Of a DNA stretch of 64,000 bases, positions 23,389-33,711 are shown piece after piece. Made by a program: the position numbers and the translations under genes. The notes beneath the pieces were generated by a model. The model had not been told where the DNA came from and searched no databases. It saw nothing but the letters and a program-made list of their open reading frames with translations. Within the stretch, counting starts at the first letter, position 1, and every line of letters starts with the position of its first letter. Origin of the DNA: an uncultured Actinomycetes bacterium (lineage in GTDB: Bacteria > Actinomycetota > UBA4738 > HRBIN12); assembly GCA_963727185.1 (NCBI GenBank), contig CAVSFP010000009.1, positions 221,702-285,701 of the forward strand, written 5' to 3'.

Positions 23389-24014
23389 GGCTTACGCCGC
23401 CCCCTTGTTCCGGGCGGCTCGCAAGCGTCGCCTGATAGGACCATCGTCCATTCCTAGTGTCCCGTCAAACCCAGGTGGGAGCTTGCCTTCGGCGCGGATC
23501 TGATCCACCCGTTGGTGTGAGACTCAGAAGGACCGCGGCGGCCGCGGTCTCGCTGATCGGACGGTCTTACACGGCGAGCCAAGCCGCGCGCAGTGATCGG
23601 CCGGAGGAGCCTGAGCTGATCTCGGCCGATGGAGACTGTGCGCCGCTAGGGTTCGACGATTCCGCCACCGACGATCGGGACAGAAGCGCCGTTGTGCTTC
23701 AACCAACGGATGAAATCCACGGTGTCGTTCTTGTCGAGGTCGCCGTAGCTCTGTGGTCGTCTGTCGGTTCCAGAGCCCTCGGCTTGGTGAGTATCGGACC
23801 TCCCGTAGCTCGACTCGACCGAGGGGTTGAAAGAGCTTGGTATTGGACTTGCTTCGCCGAGTGGTCGTTTCACCTGAGGTCCTCGCACGTGTCGGGTGGG
23901 GCCGTAGGGAGGCCGACCCGATCGACATGCGGTGCCGTCGAACCGTGCGACGTCACCGGTCTCCGCGGTTTGGTCGATGACGCGTCGTCACCCTCGCCGG
24001 TCATGTCCGACGCC

Positions 24015-24971
24015 TTATCGCGAGAAGAGCGCGGCGCCCACCAAACCCGCCTGCGGCCCGATCGCGGACGGCATGATCGGGACCGCTCGCGCCGCGTCAG
24101 CCCAGATCGCGGCGCGAGCGGCCTCGACGGCCGCGTCCCGGTACGGACCCGCTGCGGAGCCCAGACCACCGCCCACCACGACGGCGTCGGGATCGAGCAG
24201 ATTGACCAGTTCGGCGAGCCCTCGCCCCAGTGCCCGGCCGGCAGACATGGCCACGTCGCGCGCTACCGGATCAAGCGTGGAACGCTCGAGGACATCTCGC
24301 GCGGAGGTTGCGACACCACCCGCATCGCGGTACCGCTGCACGAGCGCCGGACCTCCGGCGTACGCTTCGAGCGGCACGTCTCGGGGGCCTGGTCCAACGG
24401 TCGGGACATCGACCAGGACGCCGCTCCCGAGGAGGATCGCGGCGCCGTTCGCACCGGCCCACGGGCGACCGTCGAGCACGAAGCAGCAGCTGATCCCGGT
24501 TCCGATGGACACGAAGACGAAGGACTCCAGCCCGGCCCCGTGGCCGAATCGAGCTTCCGCGAGGGCTGCACCACGCACGTCCGCTTCGACGGCCGTCACA
24601 CCGAGGTCGGCCCACGCCGAAGCGAGGTTCCCGGACAAGCCGGGGATGACGACGTCGGTCAACACCTCGCCGACCGGCGACACGAGCTCAGGGACCACGA
24701 CGCCCACTCCTGCCGGCCGGACCTCCGAACCCGCGACCAGCTCCTCCACGACAACTCGGAGACGTCGGTGCAGGTTGTCAGCGTCTCGTTCCGCATGCGA
24801 GTCGATCTCTTGGACGTTCCGGACGATCCCCGATCCCACCTCGACGAGGCCGACCGCTGTCTTCGTCCCACCGACGTCGATACCGACCGCCAATCCCCGC
24901 TCCGACGCCATCATGCTGTCCGCTTCCAGTCGGTCATTGCTCGCCGGGAGGCCGCGTGTGGTCATGGACAT
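24015..24971 (-). CDS. ROK-family sugar kinase
   Basis: LAVGIDVGGTKTAVGLVEV (ATP-binding DxGxT) plus later glycine-rich ROK segments. The start is uncertain: ATG 24971 or 24965 overlaps the upstream gene, while ATG 24914 or 24911 lies after its stop. Confidence 0.85.
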   Translation of the reverse strand: MSMTTRGLPASNDRLEADSMMASERGLAVGIDVGGTKTAVGLVEVGSGIVRNVQEIDSHAERDADNLHRRLRVVVEELVAGSEVRPAGVGVVVPELVSPVGEVLTDVVIPGLSGNLASAWADLGVTAVEADVRGAALAEARFGHGAGLESFVFVSIGTGISCCFVLDGRPWAGANGAAILLGSGVLVDVPTVGPGPRDVPLEAYAGGPALVQRYRDAGGVATSARDVLERSTLDPVARDVAMSAGRALGRGLAELVNLLDPDAVVVGGGLGSAAGPYRDAAVEAARAAIWADAARAVPIMPSAIGPQAGLVGAALFSR

Positions 24972-26058
24972 GCGTCGAGGTGTCGGGGGTCCCGTTGACC
25001 AGCTGCAGGTCGCCGAACGTCGATGTGACGGCGACCATCGTCCCGTCTCCGGCCGCCGATCGGCGGCACGCGTCCACCACGTCGAGGACGTGGATGTCGT
25101 GGTCGAGGCTGAACACCTCCCATCGTCCCGAGCGCAGCGCCTCCACGGCGCTCCGCAAGCCGTCGGTCCAGTTCCATGTGCGGTCTGGGCTCGGGTATCC
25201 GCGCCAATGACCCCAACTCTCGCGGAACACCTCGATCCCTTCGGGGTCCCAGTCGTCGCCGAGCAGGTTCGCGGTCCCCTCGCTGCCGTACAGCTCGATC
25301 GCGGGACGTCGGTAGGCCCACACCGCGTGGCTCGCCATCACGGACGACGTCGCACCCCGCTCGTGCCGAAGCATCAGGTGCACGACGTCGGGATCGGGCT
25401 CACGGCCCTTCAGGGACTCCCGCTCGATATCCGATCGTGACTGTAGGCAACGGACCTCGCGAACGGGACCGAGCAGGGCGGTGAGCGACTTGAGGTTGTA
25501 GATCGCGAGATCGCCGAGCGGGCCGACCCCCGACGCGTGATACCAGGATGCCCACGTGGAACCCGGGTTCCCGTACATCGCGCGCGCCGAGTGGACCTGG
25601 CCGAGGACACCGGCCCGCACCCAGGCCCGCAGCATCCCGAACGCCGGCGAGAGCTGCACGAACGGTGCGACCGCGAGAAGGAGACCGTTCGCACGGGCGA
25701 GGTCGGCGAGCGCCCGGCCCTCGTCGGGATCGGAGGCGAACGGCTTCTCCACGACGACGTGCTTCCCGGCGTCGAGCGCCTGGCGCGTCAGCGCGGCGTG
25801 GCTGTCCGGGGCGGTCGTGATCAGGACCAGGTCGATGTCGCCGGCCAACACCTCATCGACGGTGGCGACCGCGCGCGTGCTCGGTCGCCGCGCGACGAGC
25901 TCGCGCCTCGTCTTGGCCCGGCGATCGCAGACCGGGCCATCGACCGCGGTGCCGGATGCGACGAGCGCGTCGAGCGTTCGCAGGTAGGCCCTGGACGCGC
26001 TGCCCGCGCCGATCAGGGCGACGACGACGGGTTCCCGATGCGCCCGCCGCCGAGGCAC
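24934..26058 (-). CDS. Gfo/Idh/MocA-family NAD(P)-dependent oxidoreductase
   Basis: GTG 26058 (aa 111 of ORF 24934..26388) overlaps the stop of the binding-protein gene. It has the Rossmann motif VVALIGAGSASRAY and the family motif HVVVEKPFA. Confidence 0.85.
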   Translation of the reverse strand: MPRRRAHREPVVVALIGAGSASRAYLRTLDALVASGTAVDGPVCDRRAKTRRELVARRPSTRAVATVDEVLAGDIDLVLITTAPDSHAALTRQALDAGKHVVVEKPFASDPDEGRALADLARANGLLLAVAPFVQLSPAFGMLRAWVRAGVLGQVHSARAMYGNPGSTWASWYHASGVGPLGDLAIYNLKSLTALLGPVREVRCLQSRSDIERESLKGREPDPDVVHLMLRHERGATSSVMASHAVWAYRRPAIELYGSEGTANLLGDDWDPEGIEVFRESWGHWRGYPSPDRTWNWTDGLRSAVEALRSGRWEVFSLDHDIHVLDVVDACRRSAAGDGTMVAVTSTFGDLQLVNGTPDTSTHVHDHTRPPGEQ

Positions 26059-27656
26059 TAGCCGATCCAGATCTGACGCCAGTCGTAGTTGTTGAGCGGC
26101 GCGCCGGTCTTCGTGGGCTCGACGCCATGCACTTGTGAAGACACCCCGTCGATCACCGGCGGGAACAGCGGGATGATGTACCCGCCGTCGTCGTAGTCGA
26201 TCTGCTGCATCTGGTGCACGATGTCGGTCCGCGCGTTCGCGTCCACCGTCTTCAACGCCTTGTTGTACAGGTCGGTGTAGGGCGGGTTGTCGTAGTGCGT
26301 CTCGTTGTACGGCGCGTCCGGGACGAAGAACTGGCCGACCGACGGCAGGTAGTACTGGTAGAAGGAGAAGTCCTGGGCGAAGACCCACTTCAGGTACTGC
26401 GGGCCGTAGAAGTCCGAGACCGTCACCTTCTTCAGGTTCACCGTCACGCCCGCAGCTTTCGCTTGCTGCGCGAAGACCGTGGCCATCGACGTCGCACCCT
26501 GCGCGAACTCCGACGTGACCAGGTCGATCGTCAGGCCCTCCAGGCCTGCCGCCTGCAGCAGCGACTTCGCCTGCTCGGGGTCGTAGGGCCGCTGTGGCAG
26601 GTCGTGGTTGTAGGAGGGGTCGTACAGGGACAACACATCGTTGCCGATCGTCCCGTTCCCGCCGAAGACCACGTTCATCATCTGCTCGCGGTCCACCATC
26701 AGACGGAACGCCTGACGAACGGAGGGATCCTTGAACGGATCAGCATCCACCCGCATCGTGAACGGCACCCACCCGCCGCCGGGCGAGACCACCGACTGGC
26801 CCCCGGAGGACGCGAGGGTTGCGGCGCCTGAGGCCGAGAGCTGGTTCACCATGTCGGCTTGTCCGCCGCTCAGCGCGTTCAGCTGCGCCGTCTCGTCGGC
26901 GAAGTCCGAGATCACGACCGTGTCGACGTACGGCTCGCCCGAGCGACAGTAGTTCTCGTTACGAACGAACGTGCTCTCCTGCCCTGGCGTGAAGCTCTGA
27001 TACTTGAACGGACCCGTGCCGACCGGGTTCTTCGGGTCATACCCCTGGGGGATGATGTTGTAGTAGTAGTTCGCGACCAGCTGATCCAAGATCGCGTACG
27101 GCGTCTTGCACGGGATCTGCACGGTCAGGTCGTCGATCTTCTTCATGTTGCCGACGTCCACGGCCGCCATCGGCGCGGCGCCCGGCAGCGGGGCCTTCGG
27201 GTCCACGATCCGCTGGAAGCTGTAGATAACGTCGTCGACCGTCAGCGGCTTGCCGTCGTGGAACGTGATGCCGCTCTTGAGCTTGAGCGTCCACAACGTC
27301 GCGTCCGAGTTCGAGGTGAACTCCTCAGCGAGGATCGGCACGAGCTTCGCGTCGTTGCCGAACCCGATCAACGGTTCGTTCAGCTGGAGGATCCGCGCGA
27401 AGTCGATCGTGGTGATCGCCGACTGGCAGTCGAGCGTGTCGGCGCTGGAGCCGCCGCTGATCGCCGCTCGGAGCGTGCCGCCCTTCTTGATCGCGGCGCT
27501 CGCGGACGGAGTGACCGAAGGCGTCGACGATCCGTTGCTGGTGCAGCTGACGGCGCCGAGGATCGGGATCGACACCCCCGCCAGCACGGCGGTGCGCAAC
27601 AGCTCGCGTCGACTCAGCGTCCAACCGTCACGATCGGACTGCGGTGTGCTCATCAC
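26058..27656 (-). CDS. ABC transporter substrate-binding protein, family 5 (DppA/OppA-like), Tat-lipoprotein signal
   Basis: 532 aa. The twin-arginine signal SRRELLRTAVLAGV is followed by the lipobox-like LGAVSC. The family-5 fold continues throughout. Confidence 0.9.
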   Translation of the reverse strand: MMSTPQSDRDGWTLSRRELLRTAVLAGVSIPILGAVSCTSNGSSTPSVTPSASAAIKKGGTLRAAISGGSSADTLDCQSAITTIDFARILQLNEPLIGFGNDAKLVPILAEEFTSNSDATLWTLKLKSGITFHDGKPLTVDDVIYSFQRIVDPKAPLPGAAPMAAVDVGNMKKIDDLTVQIPCKTPYAILDQLVANYYYNIIPQGYDPKNPVGTGPFKYQSFTPGQESTFVRNENYCRSGEPYVDTVVISDFADETAQLNALSGGQADMVNQLSASGAATLASSGGQSVVSPGGGWVPFTMRVDADPFKDPSVRQAFRLMVDREQMMNVVFGGNGTIGNDVLSLYDPSYNHDLPQRPYDPEQAKSLLQAAGLEGLTIDLVTSEFAQGATSMATVFAQQAKAAGVTVNLKKVTVSDFYGPQYLKWVFAQDFSFYQYYLPSVGQFFVPDAPYNETHYDNPPYTDLYNKALKTVDANARTDIVHQMQQIDYDDGGYIIPLFPPVIDGVSSQVHGVEPTKTGAPLNNYDWRQIWIG

Positions 27657-28558
27657 GACCTCCCTTTCGAGCTCATGTACGACGGCGCGGCCGCGAACAC
27701 GTACCGCGTCGATCCCTCGTGCGCCTGGTACCGGTGCTCCACTCCCTCCGGGACGTACCAGCCGTCACCGGGGTGGAGTTCGAACCACTTGCGTGCGTCG
27801 GGTCCCTCGACCGCCACCGCCAACGACCCCTCCAGGACGTAACCACACTCGTCGCCGGCGTGGGTGTGCCACTCGCCTCGCTGGCCTGCGTACAGGTCCG
27901 TCATCCCCACCGTGAGGTGCTCGGTGCTGACGAACAGGCCGACGGGAACGGGGTTGGGGCTGCCCGGCTCCAGGCGCCAGCGAAGATCGGCCGTTCGCAC
28001 GACCCGGATCGTGTCCTCCGCCGCCAGCGGAGCGCCGGGGACGAAGGTCCCGAGTTGTCGGTCGTCCCCGAGGGCGACGTCGGACAGCAACGGCTGCGAC
28101 CGCGCGTAGGTGCCGGACGTGCCGGCCGCCGGCGGCGGCGCGAACATCTCGAGCACCCGAAGCGGCTCCGGACCGACCGCGTGCGCATGGTGCCAGGTAT
28201 CGCGCCTGAAGAAGGCGGCGTCGCCGGCCTCGACGCGGTGCGCCTCACCGGTCGAGGGGTTCGCGATCATCATCGTGCCGTTCACGACGTAGAGGACCTC
28301 GTCGGCCGCGAAGATCGTGCGGAACTCGTCGGAGTGGCGGAACGACCCGTGCGGCGGGAGGCCGAACACGAGCTCGTGGATCTTCGCCGAGGAGACGTAG
28401 AGCCAGTCCTGGACCTCGCCAGACCCCTCGTCGCCCCAGGTGTAGGTGAGGACGTCCGCGCGGCGCAGCGCCGTCGCCTCGTCGAAGGTGGGGCGCGGCG
28501 ACGGGCGGTAGCCACTCACCGGGGCTTGCACCCGCGGCGTCGAGGCGGCGATCCCCAC
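27653..28558 (-). CDS. bicupin protein (two cupin_2-like barrels), function unknown
   Basis: 301 aa. The first barrel reads ..FRHSDEFRTIFAADEVLYVVNGTMMIA..GEAHRVEAGDAAFFRRDTWHHAH. The second reads GEWHTHAGDECGYVLEGSLAV...HPGDGWYVPEGVEHRY. It has an ATGA overlap with the downstream binding-protein gene. Confidence 0.7.
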   Translation of the reverse strand: MGIAASTPRVQAPVSGYRPSPRPTFDEATALRRADVLTYTWGDEGSGEVQDWLYVSSAKIHELVFGLPPHGSFRHSDEFRTIFAADEVLYVVNGTMMIANPSTGEAHRVEAGDAAFFRRDTWHHAHAVGPEPLRVLEMFAPPPAAGTSGTYARSQPLLSDVALGDDRQLGTFVPGAPLAAEDTIRVVRTADLRWRLEPGSPNPVPVGLFVSTEHLTVGMTDLYAGQRGEWHTHAGDECGYVLEGSLAVAVEGPDARKWFELHPGDGWYVPEGVEHRYQAHEGSTRYVFAAAPSYMSSKGRS

Positions 28559-28585
28559 CCGCTCCCCATCAGCGCGACCCTACAA

Positions 28586-28614
28586 GACCAGTTCATGACC
28601 AGTCAAGGACCAGT
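28586..28614 (-). promoter_or_regulatory. three direct GACCAGT repeats with 11-bp phasing (candidate GntR/HutC operator, internal to the operon)
   Basis: The plus strand reads aaGACCAGTtcatGACCAGTcaagGACCAGTgag. The array lies 28-56 nt upstream of the bicupin start (28558) and spans the ATPase stop codon (28603-28605). Confidence 0.55.
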
Positions 28615-30438
28615 GAGCGCGTCGAACCGTGGGACATCGTTCATCAGTGCGCGCGTGTACCCGTCCTGCGGGTGGTCGAGCACAGCGTCGACGGGTCCGG
28701 CTTCCACGACCCGGCCTTCCTTCATGACGACCACGTGCTGCGCGACGCTGCGGACCAGCGCGAGGTTGTGCGTGATGAACAACAACGACAGCGACCGGTC
28801 GGCCTGCAGGCGACGGAGCGTCTCGACGACCGCGGCCTGCACGGAGACGTCGAGCGCCGACGTGACCTCGTCGCACACGAGCAACGACGGGTCCACCACG
28901 ATGGTGCGCGCGATCGCGACGCGCTGACGTTCACCACCGGAGAGCTGATCGGGGTATCGAGCGACGAGCTCGACCGGCAGCGAGACCGACGCGATCGCAT
29001 CGCGCACGGCCCGGTCACCCTCGTGGCGGCTGAGCTTCGCGAAGTGGTCGACGGGCTGGGCGACGAGTCCACCGATGCTGCGCCGCGGGTTCAACGATGC
29101 GTAGGGGTTCTGGAAGATGTACTGGAGGCGTCGGAGGTTCTCGACCGACCGATGCCGGAGCCCTGGGATCAACGGCTCGCCCTCGAAGCGGATGTCCCCG
29201 GACCAGTTCGCATGGAGTCCGACGATGCACCGGGCGAGCGTCGTCTTCCCGGACCCAGACTCCCCGACGACCGCGACGCACTCACCTCGCGGCACCTCGA
29301 GCGAGACGCCATGAAGCACCTGGGTGGTCCCGTACGAGGCGTCGAGGTTCGCGACGGTGAGCACGGGCGCCGGGCCCGCTGCTTCTGGCGCCGAGGTCGT
29401 CCCGCGAACCGTGAGGCTCGGGCGCGGCGCCGCGGCGCCCGGGACGGCGAGATCGGGGCGCGCGAAGACGCACCGCGCGAGATGACCGGCGCCCCTCGCG
29501 GCGCGTGGTTCCGGGCGCTCCGTCCGGCAGACGTCGACGACGATCGGGCAACGCGGCGCGAAGGCGCACCCGGCCGGACGCGCGCCGGGTCGCGGAGGCA
29601 CGCCGTCCATCCCAACGAGGTGCTCGGCGCGGTCGGGCGACGGCACCGCGCGCAGGAGTCCCCGCGAGTAGGGATGCGCCGGGGCGCCGAAGACATCGGG
29701 CACTCGGCCGACCTCGACCACGCGGCCGGCGTAGAGCACGGCGACCCGGTTCGCGAGCTCACCCACGACCGCCACGTCGTGACTGACGTAGACCGCGGCA
29801 ACGGCATACCGGGTGCAGAGCTCGGCGACCGTCTCGAGGACCGTGCGCTGGGTGGTGACATCCAGGCCGGTCGTGGGCTCGTCCAGCACGATGACCGCAG
29901 GCCTGCACGCGAACGCCATCGCGATCGTTGCCCGCTGCTGTTGCCCACCCGAGAGCTGATGCGGGAAGACGTCCAGCACACCGGGGACCGACGAGAGGCC
30001 CACCTCTTCCAGCAGTTCCGAGATCCGCTCGTCAACCTCGTCGCCTTCATGACCGTGGAACGTAAGGGACTCACGCAGCTGGGAGCCGATCCGCCGGGAC
30101 GGGTTGAGCGCGGTCGCCGGATCCTGGGGAACGTACGCCAGCGTGGAGCCGCGCAGCCTTCGGAGCTCCGGCTCGGGCAGGGTGAGCAGGTCCCGGTCGT
30201 CGAGCCGGACGGAGCCGCCGGCGAACCGGAGTCCCCGCCGAACGTAGCCGATCATCGCGAGGGCGAGCGTCGTCTTCCCGGACCCGGACTCACCAACGAG
30301 TCCGAGGACCTCCCCGGCGACGACGTCGAGCGAGACGTCCTGCAGGATCTCGACGCCCCGCGTGGTGGCGATCGTCAGGTCCTCGACCCGCAGCTTCGCC
30401 GCGTTGGTCGGGGGTTGCGAATGCCCCGGACGGCTCAT
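28603..30438 (-). CDS. fused double ATP-binding protein of a Dpp/Opp-type ABC importer (DppD-DppF fusion)
   Basis: ATG 30438 gives MSRPGHSQPP.... There are two complete cassettes: Walker A GESGSGKTT twice, and signatures LSGGQQQRATIAMA and LSGGERQRVAIARTI. It has an ATGA overlap with the upstream permease. Confidence 0.9.
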   Translation of the reverse strand: MSRPGHSQPPTNAAKLRVEDLTIATTRGVEILQDVSLDVVAGEVLGLVGESGSGKTTLALAMIGYVRRGLRFAGGSVRLDDRDLLTLPEPELRRLRGSTLAYVPQDPATALNPSRRIGSQLRESLTFHGHEGDEVDERISELLEEVGLSSVPGVLDVFPHQLSGGQQQRATIAMAFACRPAVIVLDEPTTGLDVTTQRTVLETVAELCTRYAVAAVYVSHDVAVVGELANRVAVLYAGRVVEVGRVPDVFGAPAHPYSRGLLRAVPSPDRAEHLVGMDGVPPRPGARPAGCAFAPRCPIVVDVCRTERPEPRAARGAGHLARCVFARPDLAVPGAAAPRPSLTVRGTTSAPEAAGPAPVLTVANLDASYGTTQVLHGVSLEVPRGECVAVVGESGSGKTTLARCIVGLHANWSGDIRFEGEPLIPGLRHRSVENLRRLQYIFQNPYASLNPRRSIGGLVAQPVDHFAKLSRHEGDRAVRDAIASVSLPVELVARYPDQLSGGERQRVAIARTIVVDPSLLVCDEVTSALDVSVQAAVVETLRRLQADRSLSLLFITHNLALVRSVAQHVVVMKEGRVVEAGPVDAVLDHPQDGYTRALMNDVPRFDALTGP

Positions 30439-31397
30439 TCCGACACCACCTCCGCCGGCGGACCGAGGACCACGGGCACTTGAGCGGAGGCGACGACCGG
30501 AGGATCGACCTCCCGTCGATCGACGCCGAGCGCCACCCGCGTGATCGCGTCCGTGAGGGTGTTCAGCCCGATCGTGAGCACGGCGATCATCGCAGCCGGC
30601 GCCACCGCGGCCCATGCGTTCAGCGTCAGCCCGATCCGGTTCTCGTTGATCATCGTGCCCCAGTTCGGCTGCGGCGGCGGGAGTCCGAACCCGATGAACG
30701 ACAGACCCGCCATGATCACGATCGAGTACGTCATACGCAGACCGATCTCGACCATCAGCGGGGTCACGAGGTTCGGCAGGATCTCGCCGAGCATCACCCG
30801 TCGGCCCGAGACCCCCGTGATCTCGACCGCCTTGACGTAGTCGCGCTCGGACACGTCGAGCGTCGACGCCCGCAGCACCCGTGCCACCTGGGGGGCGTGT
30901 GACAATCCGACGGCCGCGACCAGCAGCCAATCGCTGGGTCCGACGACGGAAACCAACATGAGCACGAACACGAGCTGAGGGAACGCGAGCAAGACGTCGA
31001 CCGCGCGCATCACGATCGTGTCGGGGAGCCCGCGGCGATAGCCGGCGTAGATCCCCGCGAGGGCGCCGAGGGTCACTCCGATCACCGTCGCTGCCGCCGC
31101 CAGGACGATCAATTGCCAACCGCCCGCCAAGACCCGGCTGAAGACGTCGCGGCCCAAGACGTCGCCGCCGAGCCGGAACACGGCGGACGGTTTCGCGAAC
31201 GTCGCGGTCACGTACGCATCCGGGTCATACGGCGTGAAGAGCGGGCCGATGAAGGCCACGACGAGCACGAACATGGTGAGGACAAGTCCTGCCCGGCCCC
31301 TCGCCGTCCGCGTCGTCTCGAGCAGGATGTGCCCGAACTCTGAGCGGCGCACGCGAGGAGCGGCAGGTTCGTGCATCGCGCCCCGGTCTCGCGTCAT
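30435..31397 (-). CDS. Dpp/Opp-type ABC permease (DppC-like)
   Basis: 320 aa with typical DppC-like TM layout and EAA-type loop (DYVKAVEITGVSGRRVMLGEILPN). Its start overlaps the upstream permease stop. Confidence 0.9.
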   Translation of the reverse strand: MTRDRGAMHEPAAPRVRRSEFGHILLETTRTARGRAGLVLTMFVLVVAFIGPLFTPYDPDAYVTATFAKPSAVFRLGGDVLGRDVFSRVLAGGWQLIVLAAAATVIGVTLGALAGIYAGYRRGLPDTIVMRAVDVLLAFPQLVFVLMLVSVVGPSDWLLVAAVGLSHAPQVARVLRASTLDVSERDYVKAVEITGVSGRRVMLGEILPNLVTPLMVEIGLRMTYSIVIMAGLSFIGFGLPPPQPNWGTMINENRIGLTLNAWAAVAPAAMIAVLTIGLNTLTDAITRVALGVDRREVDPPVVASAQVPVVLGPPAEVVSE

Positions 31398-32410
31398 CGG
31401 GGGACCCGGCGGCGGGGACTGGCAAGGAGTGACACGATGTCCGCAGCGATGTTTATGAACACGTAGAAGGCGGCCAGCAGGATCACGATGAACTGGATCA
31501 CCGGGATGTCCTTGTCCGTAACGGCATTCACGAGACCCGCACCGATCCCCGGATACGCGAACACGTACTCGACGAGCACGATGCCGCCGGCCAGGTACAG
31601 GAAGGTCAAGCCGATCGCCTGGATCGTTGCCGGCAGCGCGTTCGGCAGCGCATGGCGGAGCAGCACCGCACGCTTCGGGAGTCCTTTGAGCCGCGCCATC
31701 TCGACATAGTCACTCTCGAGCGCCTCGATGCTCGCCGCCCGCATCATGCGGAAGATGTAAGGCACGACCACGACCACGAGCGTGAGCACCGGGAGGATGA
31801 GCATCCGCGGCTCGTCCCATGGCTTCTCACCCGGCGGGATCGGCGAGACCGCCGGGAAGATGTGGAACACGTTCGTCGCGAAGACGAACACGAGCGCGAT
31901 CGCGATCGCGAACTCCGGCAGTGACGTCACGGCGAGCGCCACCACCGACATGATGTGGTCCGACGCGCGGTCGCGACGCAGCGCGGCAGCCAGGCCGAGC
32001 AGCACCCCGACGATGGACCCGATCACCCCCGCGAGGACGACGAGGACCGCCGAGTTCACCACCCGCGGCCAGACCAACTCCCCGACCGGTTGCTGCTGGC
32101 CGACCAGACTCGTACCGAGGTCGCCCCGCAGCAGCCCGCTCAGCCAGTCCCAATACTGCTCGAGCGGAGGGCGATCCAGGCCGAGTCGATGCTCAAGCGC
32201 GGTCAGCGATTCCGGCGTGGCCGTCTGGCCGAGCACCGCGTACGCGGCGTTCCCCGGCAGCACCTGCGTCGCGGCGAAGACGATCATCGACACGAACAGG
32301 AGCGTGAGGAACCCGAGCAGCGTGCGCTGGATCAGCAGGTCCCGGATCGGATGAGGCGTCTTCGGCGCAGGCTGGACGACCTCGGGCGCGACGGGTTCGA
32401 GGGCACTCAC
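31394..32410 (-). CDS. Dpp/Opp-type ABC permease (DppB-like)
   Basis: GTG 32410 (aa 100 of ORF 31394..32707) overlaps the GntR stop (GTGA). It reads ..IRDLLIQRTLLGFLTLLFVSMIVFAATQVLPGNAA.., with an EAA loop DYVEMARLKGLPKRAVLLRHALPNA. Confidence 0.88.
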   Translation of the reverse strand: MSALEPVAPEVVQPAPKTPHPIRDLLIQRTLLGFLTLLFVSMIVFAATQVLPGNAAYAVLGQTATPESLTALEHRLGLDRPPLEQYWDWLSGLLRGDLGTSLVGQQQPVGELVWPRVVNSAVLVVLAGVIGSIVGVLLGLAAALRRDRASDHIMSVVALAVTSLPEFAIAIALVFVFATNVFHIFPAVSPIPPGEKPWDEPRMLILPVLTLVVVVVPYIFRMMRAASIEALESDYVEMARLKGLPKRAVLLRHALPNALPATIQAIGLTFLYLAGGIVLVEYVFAYPGIGAGLVNAVTDKDIPVIQFIVILLAAFYVFINIAADIVSLLASPRRRVPR

Positions 32411-33171
32411 CGCGACCCGGCCTCGGGTCCCGCGATCGACGTGACGGAGGCCCGGAACCGATATCGCTCGCCCGCGAACGCTCCTTCGGACACCTCGATC
32501 CGACGACCCTCCTCGTCCCATGTCGTCGCCTTGATCAGCAAGACGCTCGCGCCGATCGGGACATCGAGGAGCTTCGCCTGACGCTTGTCTGCGGTGCCGG
32601 CACGGACGTCGTAGTCGGCTCGAGCTGGCACGATCCCATCTGCGCGGAAGCCGCCGTAGATGGAGTCGCGCGCGTAGTCCTGCGAGACGAGGCTCGGCGC
32701 GAGCCATGCCGCCGCCACCGCACGCTGCCAGCCGACGGGGACGCCCCCGAGCAGCCGGACCCGTTCGAGCTCGAGCACCTGCGCACCGGGTGGGGCCTCG
32801 AGCTCGTCGCCCTCCGCGAGGGTCGCCTCCCGGGGGATACAGGCAAGGACGCGCGAGGTCGCCTCCAGCCCGCGCTCGGCGGCGAGGTCGGTGAACCCGA
32901 ACAAGGCGTTCGGCTCAACGAGCGGTGTGACGAACCATCCCCGGGTCCCGTCGGCGCGCACGTAGCCGTGCCGCTCGAGTTCCTCGAGGGCGCGGCGCAC
33001 TGTCGTTCGGCTGACGCCGAACCGGCGACAGATCTCGCGTTCGCCGGGCAACCGGTCACTGACCTGGAGCGCGCCGCGATCGATGTCGGCGCGCATCAGT
33101 CTGGCGAGTTGGAGGTAGCGAGGTTGCTCGACCGAGCCGATCGTCGCTGAGGGCAAGCGGGTCGAAGCCAT
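32407..33171 (-). CDS. GntR-family transcriptional regulator, HutC/UTRA subfamily
   Basis: The N-terminal wHTH reads LPGEREICRRFGVSRTTVRRALEELERHGYV. The C-terminal domain is UTRA-like. Confidence 0.9.
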   Translation of the reverse strand: MASTRLPSATIGSVEQPRYLQLARLMRADIDRGALQVSDRLPGEREICRRFGVSRTTVRRALEELERHGYVRADGTRGWFVTPLVEPNALFGFTDLAAERGLEATSRVLACIPREATLAEGDELEAPPGAQVLELERVRLLGGVPVGWQRAVAAAWLAPSLVSQDYARDSIYGGFRADGIVPARADYDVRAGTADKRQAKLLDVPIGASVLLIKATTWDEEGRRIEVSEGAFAGERYRFRASVTSIAGPEAGSR

Positions 33172-33186
33172 CGTCCCGACGCTATC

Positions 33187-33215
33187 GGACCAGTTAAAGA
33201 CCAGTCAAGGACCGT
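33187..33215 (-). promoter_or_regulatory. second array of 11-bp-phased GACCAGT-type repeats (candidate autoregulatory operator upstream of the GntR gene)
   Basis: The plus strand reads cgGACCAGTtaaaGACCAGTcaagGACCGTGtcg. It lies 16-44 nt upstream of the GntR start (33171). The third copy is imperfect. Confidence 0.55.
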
Positions 33216-33362
33216 GTCGAGCACGATGGCTCGGGCGCCGTCCGGCGGGCCCGACCGTCCCTAGGGACCTTGGTCCTCGGACCCTCGCCGTGCGTTCGGT
33301 GCTCATCGTGACGCAGGATCAGCGGGGGCTTCGGGATCTCGCGGGACGGGTCATCAGGGTCT

Positions 33363-33548
33363 TCAAGCGTGGAGCACCTTGAAGACGTGGTAGACCATCC
33401 AGGCTGGCCAGAAGATGCCCTGGAAGAACGCGAGGATGAAGGCCCAGAAGGTGTGGGCGTGTTGGAAGAAGTACACCCACGCGCCGAAGATGCCCAGCCC
33501 GTAGATCGCGCCGGCACCTGCCGCCGCACCTGAGCTGTCCTTGCTCAT
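33363..33548 (-). CDS. small membrane protein (61 aa)
   Basis: ATG 33548 is preceded by GGAGGTGG. The product is MSKDSSGAAAGAGAIYGLGIFGAWVYFFQHAHTFWAFILAFFQGIFWPAWMVYHVFKVLHA, with two TM helices. Confidence 0.55.
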   Translation of the reverse strand: MSKDSSGAAAGAGAIYGLGIFGAWVYFFQHAHTFWAFILAFFQGIFWPAWMVYHVFKVLHA

Positions 33549-33711
33549 CGTTACCACCTCCGCGTCGATCGGGCCCGAAGTCGCCGTCGACCCCGACCCT
33601 ATCGACATCCGACGCCGACGGCGGCATCGAGCGCCAAGCGATCCGCGTCAGAGCTCAAGTCGTCGAGGCGAAGGTCGAGGACGACTCCGACATCCCACTC
33701 TCCCAACCATC

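Follow-up and report, generated by a model that had tools for sequence, protein, structure and literature searches.

The 64,000-nucleotide stretch analysed here, which is called the window and comes from the soil metagenome-assembled genome of an uncultured Actinomycetes bacterium, carries on its minus strand an eight-gene operon (24015-33171) headed by gntR, the gene of a GntR-family regulator of the HutC subfamily. Two arrays of short direct repeats, one upstream of gntR and one inside the operon, are probably the operators of a compact promoter/operator module that is present twice and is bound by the operon's own HutC repressor. As judged from sequence conservation, the first copy (P_gntR) would serve gntR, two permease genes and an ATPase gene, and the second copy (P_cupin) would serve the genes of a bicupin, a solute-binding protein, an oxidoreductase and a ROK-family kinase. 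An earlier first-pass annotation of this DNA had proposed the arrays as candidate operators of the local regulator, and the proposal gains from their conservation ahead of orthologous regulator genes, from the unrelated flanks at those loci and from the restriction of the arrays to this operon within the genome.

Read on the plus strand, the internal array is made of three copies of GACCAGT separated by tcat and caag, and the upstream array is made of two copies of GACCAGT followed by the divergent heptamer GACCGTG, with taaa and caag as spacers (Table 1). The period of the units is exactly 11 bp in both arrays. The coding-strand form of GACCAGT is ACTGGTC, since all genes of the cluster are on the minus strand. 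The first-pass annotation had described two arrays with three 11-bp-phased units each, and these are found at 28586-28614 and 33188-33216, the upstream one starting at 33188 and not at 33187, which was off by one.

The single heptamer is not enriched, either in the window (13 copies, 8.0 +/- 2.9 expected) or in the whole genome of 3.88 Mb and 68% G+C (371 copies, about 420 expected). The phased pair GACCAGT-N4-GACCAGT, which had been suggested for a genome scan, is not common genome-wide and occurs three times in the 3.88 Mb, always inside the two arrays, against a chance expectation of about 0.02 phased pairs as calculated from the genome heptamer counts. A 28-nt weight matrix, trained on orthologous loci only and with the window's own rows excluded, scores the internal array at 44.4 bits and the upstream array at 40.0 bits, and the rest of the genome reaches at most 12 bits. 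When 41 relatives were scanned for the triple-phased pattern, it was found at the regulator loci of the window's genome (G000) and of G012, plus two unrelated matches. Since neither the matrix nor the triple-phased pattern finds other regulator-linked sites, the predicted regulon is this single operon, which would be expressed as two co-regulated transcription units.

Compared with the canonical HutC operator, GT-N4-AC, neither module contains a palindrome, and all units have the same orientation. Two weak palindromes similar to dre, the DasR and NagR site, are found in the whole genome, both outside the arrays. The idea of a dre-type half-site in a direct-repeat geometry is therefore sustained by the common orientation, the 11-bp period and the missing palindrome, and also by the conservation of the arginines with which NagR reads the GG of its site. 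Hidden palindromes were considered as well, namely GTC-N3-GAC between units and GACnnGTC within a unit, and were rejected, as their arms match over 3 nt only, they misfit the GT-N4-AC spacing, and the 7-mer direct unit accounts for all conserved columns. A set of GGACC/GGTCC-rich palindromes, which reads GGGTCCGAGGACCAAGGTCCCTAGGGAC on the minus strand and contains the perfect 12-mer GTCCCTAGGGAC, is located at about 33255-33290, 50-90 nt upstream of the gntR array. These palindromes are conserved in no orthologous locus and for this reason are excluded from the operator.

Both regions can be aligned over about 50 bp on the coding strand, which makes them one duplicated module. The upstream copy reads ACGGTC-CTTGAC-TGGTC-TTTAAC-TGGTC-CGA-TAGCGT-CGGGACG-ATGG and the internal copy reads ACTGGTC-CTTGAC-TGGTC-ATGAAC-TGGTC-TTG-TAGGGT-CGCGCTG-ATGG, which gives the consensus TGGTC-n-TTGAC-TGGTC-nnnAAC-TGGTC-n3-TAnnnT-N6-8-start codon, with N7-ATG in both modules of the window. 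The three TGGTC units occupy the -35 box, the DNA immediately before it and the spacer and, being arranged head to tail with a period of 11 bp, they lie on one face of the DNA. The remaining part of the module reads as a -35/-10 promoter with the start codon placed where a leaderless transcript would begin. In the orthologs the start codon also stands 6-8 nt past TAnnnT, although the bases in between vary. The gntR ATG, 7 nt past the -10 box, implies a leaderless gntR mRNA, and both promoters are predicted to give leaderless transcripts, their transcription starts being inferred. The composite pattern TTGAC-N17/18-TAnnnT-N6-8-(A/G)TG has 12 matches in the genome, among them both modules, and 1-4 matches in shuffled sequences. 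This excess suggests that the organism regularly makes leaderless transcripts from strong -35/-10 promoters.

The regulator is seldom found in the 40 nearest genomes, with a close copy in G012 only; homologs of 56-91% identity are common in soil metagenomes. For comparison, 61 loci were fetched. The architecture of the module recurs ahead of nearly every ortholog, that is, of about 50 orthologous HutC genes with 56-91% identity. In 23 unique rows of loci with the gene order of the window (type A), hardly any variation is seen in TTGAC and in the three TGGTC units (information 8-9 of 9), the information falls to 0-3 upstream of unit 1, and the bases that separate the -10 box from the start codon show no conservation. 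In these rows AACTGGTC, the unit in the spacer, is conserved better than the -10 box. In 24 unique rows of loci with a second gene order (type B), four units are found at columns 29/40/51/62. The flanks beyond about -45 are unrelated among the orthologs because the neighbouring genes differ. The sequence of the unit shifts with the lineage of the regulator (ACTGGTC, TTGGTC, TGGTA), which fits cognate pairs of regulator and site. Taken from alignments, this is a clean phylogenetic footprint, which goes beyond what promoter elements alone can explain.

The footprint bears on the proposal that the block is a promoter only, for instance one of a specialised sigma factor, which was duplicated with its downstream genes and whose repeats are promoter elements or by-products that bind no repressor. 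The block does contain TTGAC and TAnnnT, the genome is enriched in the composite promoter pattern, and one module is clearly a duplicate of the other. The proposal is nevertheless scarcely credible, since AACTGGTC in the spacer and the TGGTC ahead of the -35 box are among the top-conserved positions, at places that are uninformative in sigma-70-type promoters, and since the unit recurs 2-5 times with a strict 11-bp period and, in a more distant group (group C, described below), is inverted and outside the promoter core. Moreover, the other 10 composite-promoter matches of the genome are without repeats.

Synteny mapping sorts the loci into two gene orders. In type A loci (window, L015, L016, L061-L063, L069, L071) gntR is followed by the genes of permease B, permease C and the ATPase, then by the internal module and the genes of the bicupin, the solute-binding protein, the Gfo/Idh/MocA oxidoreductase and the ROK kinase. 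In type B loci, whose regulators are 56-62% identical, gntR is followed directly by the bicupin, solute-binding protein, oxidoreductase and ROK genes, with permease and ATPase genes absent from the immediate neighbourhood. These loci carry one module, which is upstream and has four units in 11-bp phase; a search over +/-7 kb gave no second one. All seven type A loci that extend to the ATPase/bicupin junction (window, L015, L061, L062, L063, L069, L071) have the internal module there, and in the last six its distance from the start of gntR is +4.51 to +4.58 kb. The comparison of both types indicates that the bicupin block is always behind a module, which is duplicated where transporter genes separate the block from gntR. 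An internal regulated promoter that splits the cluster, as had been suggested from the second array, is thus favoured by its presence in 7/7 junctions of type A and by the type B order, in which the bicupin block stands directly behind gntR and a single module.

The position of the internal module implies an overlap with coding sequence, and the earlier observation that the internal array spans the ATPase stop codon is correct, as the TGA lies inside TTGACT. The same holds for all type A orthologs, in which the last ATPase codons (x-Gly-x-stop) come from unit 1. The first start codon 6-8 nt past the internal -10 box belongs to the bicupin frame in 2/7 loci (L063, L069) and to a mini-open reading frame (mini-ORF) in 5/7. 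In L063 this codon is the bicupin start itself, with the sequence M-S-G-Y-R-P-S-P. The window, L061, L015, L062 and L071 have a mini-ORF of 14-19 codons, whose TGA overlaps the bicupin start (GTGA, ATGA or TTGA). The mini-ORF peptides differ among lineages, so the arrangement of the frames is kept and not the peptide. This overlap suggests translational coupling between the mini-ORF and the bicupin gene, and the same layout makes it likely that the bicupin start of the window has to be moved to the GTG at 28519. The classes of start codons found at the internal module give further indirect support for a transcription start there.

The regulator is formed by an N-terminal GntR winged helix-turn-helix domain (PF00392, E = 1.1e-17, residues 19-81) and by a C-terminal UTRA domain, which has a chorismate-lyase fold and covers the full profile (PF07702, E = 1e-27, residues 99-238). 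Its nearest solved structures, as best PDB matches, are NagR/YvoA, PhnF and DasR, and no NCBIfam equivalog model reaches its cut-off. In NagR, Arg38 and Arg48 read G-5 and G-4 of GTGGTC, while the wing residue Gly69 contacts G-7 (PMC4333415). The residues aligned with Arg38 and Arg48 are R45 and R55, both of them invariant in the regulator alignment (A1). The position of the wing Gly69 is occupied by Thr76 in the segment G75-T76-R77-G78-W79 (G-T-R-G-W versus K-G-R-G-T in NagR). The inter-domain linker of the regulator is no longer than that of NagR.

More distant HutC groups have related arrays. Group C (G004 type, L079-L090) comprises regulators with 41% identity, which are also followed by bicupin and ROK genes. 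Its array, GACCAGC-ATAG-GACCAGT-C-nTTGACA, is placed ahead of the -35 box, which it abuts, and its two units, 11 bp apart, point the opposite way from those of the window, so the orientation of the unit varies within the family. Beside the array there is a weak inverted partner, CCGGnC-ATGA-GACCAG. Group D, which includes the HutC paralog of the window's own genome (G000 contig C11:65640-66326, L011/L101), has four (C/T)GGT(C/T) units in 11-bp phase at columns 30/41/52/63, the last of which merges into the -10 box GGTCTATnAT of another predicted leaderless promoter. In the C11 paralog, four 11-bp-phased CGG(C/T)C units end in GGTCTATGAT, 6-8 nt before its ATG. This group D pattern is kept in 15 relatives, which also share a GACTCTAG...GTCAAGCC block farther upstream. 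Homologs with 46-48% identity have TGGTA/TGGTC units with a period of 10-11 bp, and relatives in general carry 2-5 units at 10-11 bp. On the sequences compared, phased arrays are a clade-wide trait of HutC groups in the same order.

The paralog raises the question of whether another factor binds the arrays, which could be the HutC protein encoded at C11:65640-66326 or a global regulator similar to DasR. This is very unlikely, because the array accompanies the local regulator over about 50 loci and three gene orders and its motif varies with the lineage of that regulator (ACTGGTC, TTGGTC, TGGTA). In favour of such a factor, the heptamer is the half-site of the DasR/NagR dre element (PMC4333415), and the second HutC paralog of the genome has its own promoter with a similar phased (C/T)GG(C/T)C array. 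The units of the paralog are different in this genome, however (CGGCC/CGGTC), and neither of the two weak dre-like palindromes is near the paralog.

A wider proposition, which is tentative and rather doubtful, is that a clade of actinobacterial HutC regulators, with at least four paralogous or orthologous groups of 41-91% identity, abandoned the recognition of palindromes. Their winged helix-turn-helix domains would then bind head to tail on one DNA face to 2-5 TGGTC-type units one helical turn apart, in either direction relative to the promoter. If true, specificity relative to DasR-type proteins would come from geometry and cooperative oligomerisation and not from base contacts, and the clade would represent a distinct and structurally uncharacterised DNA-binding mode for a UTRA-domain dimer, in which odd unit numbers would mean that the two DNA-binding domains are used unequally or that higher-order oligomers form.

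The mechanism proposed for the operon, which is the most economical model, is that one winged-helix domain of its HutC regulator would dock on each TGGTC unit, head to tail and on one face of the DNA, through the Arg-guanine contacts that NagR and DasR use on the palindromic dre half-site. The bound regulator would exclude RNA polymerase at both promoters by occupying the -35 box and the spacer, and this block would result in autoregulation and in co-regulation of the two parts of the operon. The repressor would be released when a small molecule, probably a sugar or sugar phosphate that the pathway makes, binds the UTRA domain as effector. The occupied internal operator could also act as a roadblock for read-through from P_gntR.

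A different role of the bound regulator, as an activator or dual regulator, or an internal site that is mainly a roadblock or attenuator rather than a separate promoter, is unlikely. A repressor classically sits where the units of type A and type B loci are found, over the -35 box and the spacer, although the array of group C, at about -37 to -60, has a position typical of activators. The characterised HutC proteins considered here, NagR and DasR (PMC4333415, PMC4918961) and NagQ (PMC4173781), are repressors. Read-through from P_gntR is possible because a terminator scan of the region found no terminator between the ATPase and bicupin genes; against a mere roadblock, the internal module keeps its -35 box, -10 box and start codon, and in L063 it appears to drive directly a leaderless bicupin gene.

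Several points weigh against repression by the operon's own regulator at two leaderless promoters. A simple dimer does not readily account for an odd number of units. The group C array is inverted and upstream of the -35 box, so occlusion of the promoter is not the sole possible outcome across the family. Part of the conservation, that is TTGAC and TAnnnT, is promoter and not operator. A scan for E. coli-type promoters calls none in the region, with criteria that are ill-suited to actinobacterial -10 boxes; this is expected because TAGCGT agrees with TATAAT at 3/6 positions, and it means that the promoter call depends on the actinobacterial TAnnnT rule and on conservation. The lineage of L068 and L072, which has a 58-61% identical homolog in a different gene context, is without the array in the DNA covered. 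Finally, the loci are not fully independent because many of them are related soil metagenome contigs.

Some of the compared loci have particularities of their own. L068 and L072 are high-G+C contigs with a leaderless-type promoter, TTGACG-N17-TACGGT-N7-ATG, ahead of the regulator homolog, and their label as a Bifidobacterium breve metagenome-assembled genome looks like a binning error. In L070 (G012 contig C4), gntR and the gene of permease B are split into several frames, and in L071 the ATPase gene is fragmented. These broken genes are decaying operons or assembly errors, and the operator module is intact in both loci.

The eight genes of the operon were assigned by Pfam and are listed with the elements of both modules in Table 1. 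The operon joins a peptide-type (Opp/Dpp) transporter with sugar-type enzymes (Gfo/Idh/MocA, ROK) and an uncharacterised bicupin. The ROK protein was considered as a DNA binder and rejected, since its 318 residues contain the ROK domain alone and no helix-turn-helix. No Rfam match at E <= 1 was found across 23800-33600.

Table 1. Features of the gntR operon and of its two promoter/operator modules in the window
Feature	Coordinates	Strand	Remarks
Upstream module P_gntR	33179..33216	-	cACGGTC-CTTG-ACTGGTC-TTTA-ACTGGTC-CGA-TAGCGT; conserved in about 50 orthologous loci
Upstream unit 1 (distal, degenerate)	33210..33216	-	CACGGTC; core CGGTC versus TGGTC in orthologs; keeps GGTC only
Upstream unit 2	33199..33205	-	ACTGGTC, fused with the -35 box; invariant across type A loci
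Upstream unit 3	33188..33194	-	ACTGGTC within the promoter spacer; conserved more than the -10 box
P_gntR -35-like hexamer TTGACT	33203..33208	-	TTGAC invariant in type A, TTGAT in type B loci
P_gntR -10-like hexamer TAGCGT (TAnnnT)	33179..33184	-	18 nt past the -35 box, 7 nt ahead of the gntR ATG
Internal module P_cupin	28577..28614	-	ACTGGTC-CTTG-ACTGGTC-ATGA-ACTGGTC-TTG-TAGGGT; conserved in L015, L061, L062, L063, L069, L071
Internal unit 1	28608..28614	-	ACTGGTC within the ATPase coding sequence
Internal unit 2	28597..28603	-	ACTGGTC
Internal unit 3	28586..28592	-	ACTGGTC
Internal -35-like hexamer TTGACT	28601..28606	-	contains the ATPase stop TGA (28605..28603); same in all type A loci
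Internal -10-like hexamer TAGGGT	28577..28582	-	18 nt past the -35 box, 7 nt ahead of an ATG
Mini-ORF of 17 codons, MGSGWGSPPRRRGCKPR	28516..28569	-	starts 7 nt past the internal -10 box; TGA overlaps the bicupin GTG (GTGA)
HutC-subfamily GntR regulator, 254 aa, winged helix-turn-helix and UTRA	32407..33171	-	PF00392, PF07702; predicted leaderless
DppB-type ATP-binding cassette (ABC) permease	31394..32392 (start approximate)	-	Pfam
DppC-type ABC permease	30435..31397	-	Pfam
Fused DppD/F-type double ATPase	28603..30441 (start approximate)	-	Pfam; last codons Thr-Gly-Pro formed by internal unit 1; TGA stop inside the internal -35 box
Bicupin	27653..28519	-	likely start GTG 28519 (M-S-G-Y-R-P-S-P); longest open reading frame from GTG 28558
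Family-5 (Opp/Dpp-type) solute-binding protein	26058..27656	-	Pfam
Gfo/Idh/MocA oxidoreductase	24934..26061 (start approximate)	-	Pfam
ROK-family sugar kinase	24015..24971	-	Pfam; without DNA-binding domain

The map gives precise predicted operator and promoter positions for an uncharacterised uptake/catabolic operon, which is widespread in uncultured soil Actinomycetota, and would add a well-sampled case, with over 70 non-redundant sites from four related groups, to the few HutC regulators with tandem sites. The half-site word shared with DasR and NagR makes it a good system for asking how geometry alone sets specificity, and also in what way the dimer of a UTRA-domain protein could bind sites that share one direction and are odd in number. 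Such operons can be annotated in metagenomes with the 28-nt matrix, and the module, as a predicted compact repressible leaderless promoter, could serve as an actinobacterial genetic part.

The consensus operator of HutC regulators is the palindrome NyGTMTAKACNy, to which direct-repeat exceptions have been published (PMC4494728). The geometry had been called unusual and this is maintained, but it is not unprecedented, as FarR, NagQ and MoyR use direct repeats (PMC4494728, PMC5343134, bioRxiv 10.1101/2025.08.21.671446). The motif of NagQ, a HutC regulator encoded in the operon under its control (PMC4173781), is a tandem repeat of the heptamer TGGTATT (PMC4494728, PMC5343134). Both systems have a HutC-subfamily regulator and a direct repeat of a TGGT-containing unit, and TGGTAT units with a 10-11-bp period are found at homologs 46-48% identical to the regulator of the window. 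NagQ, however, belongs to alpha-, beta- and some gamma-proteobacteria and to their N-acetylglucosamine (GlcNAc) regulon, while the window has a TGGTC dre-type unit in another phylum and in a leaderless context, and a pathway without nagA or nagB, with a Dpp-type ABC transporter, a bicupin, a Gfo/Idh/MocA protein and a ROK protein instead. The NagQ boxes are spaced by N4. NagQ sites are absent from the supplements of PMC5343134 and PMC4494728. A search for nag-linked HutC genes in a plasmid collection gave matches of 33-38% identity only, in unrelated contexts.

FarR/MngR of E. coli binds two 10-bp direct repeats, TGTATTAWTT (PMC4494728), and MoyR (Rv0792c) of M. tuberculosis, which is likewise an actinobacterial HutC protein, binds two ACGTATTA units with 2 bp between them, as dimer, tetramer and hexamer (bioRxiv 10.1101/2025.08.21.671446). 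Both are members of the HutC subfamily with direct-repeat operators at the regulator's own promoter. Their arrays have two AT-rich units with a 10-bp period, whereas those described here have 3-5 GC-containing TGGTC units at 11 bp, in a module that is duplicated within the operon.

DasR and NagR share with the regulator the domain architecture, the half-site word (A/G)(C/G)TGGTC and the guanine-reading arginines. The dre element, in contrast, is a 16-bp palindrome with half-sites head to head, while the units of the operon are head to tail at 11 bp and have no palindromic partner. DasR and NagR control a global nag/pts regulon, unlike the single operon predicted here, in which no GlcNAc genes (nagA, nagB, phosphotransferase system or nagP) are found.

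NanR of E. coli binds three tandem direct repeats, (GGTATA)3, over its target promoter, and the repeat unit is also given as TGGTATAW (PMC4494728). NanR belongs to the FadR subfamily, whose effector domain is all-helical (PMC11705089). As a GntR-family repressor with three tandem repeats it has a similar logic, which does not amount to membership: its domain is of the all-helical FadR type and not UTRA, and its repeat unit is shorter than the 11-bp period.

An arrangement of this kind in Actinomycetota was not found described in a literature search, which is not a proof of absence. The upstream array, at the regulator's own promoter, has three same-orientation units at 11 bp, and since direct-repeat HutC operators are known from NagQ, FarR and MoyR, the system would join an existing tandem-repeat class. 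Within this class it is set apart by the dre-type half-site, by 3-5 units at a strict period of 11 bp, by the duplication of the module in the operon and by the predicted leaderless promoters.

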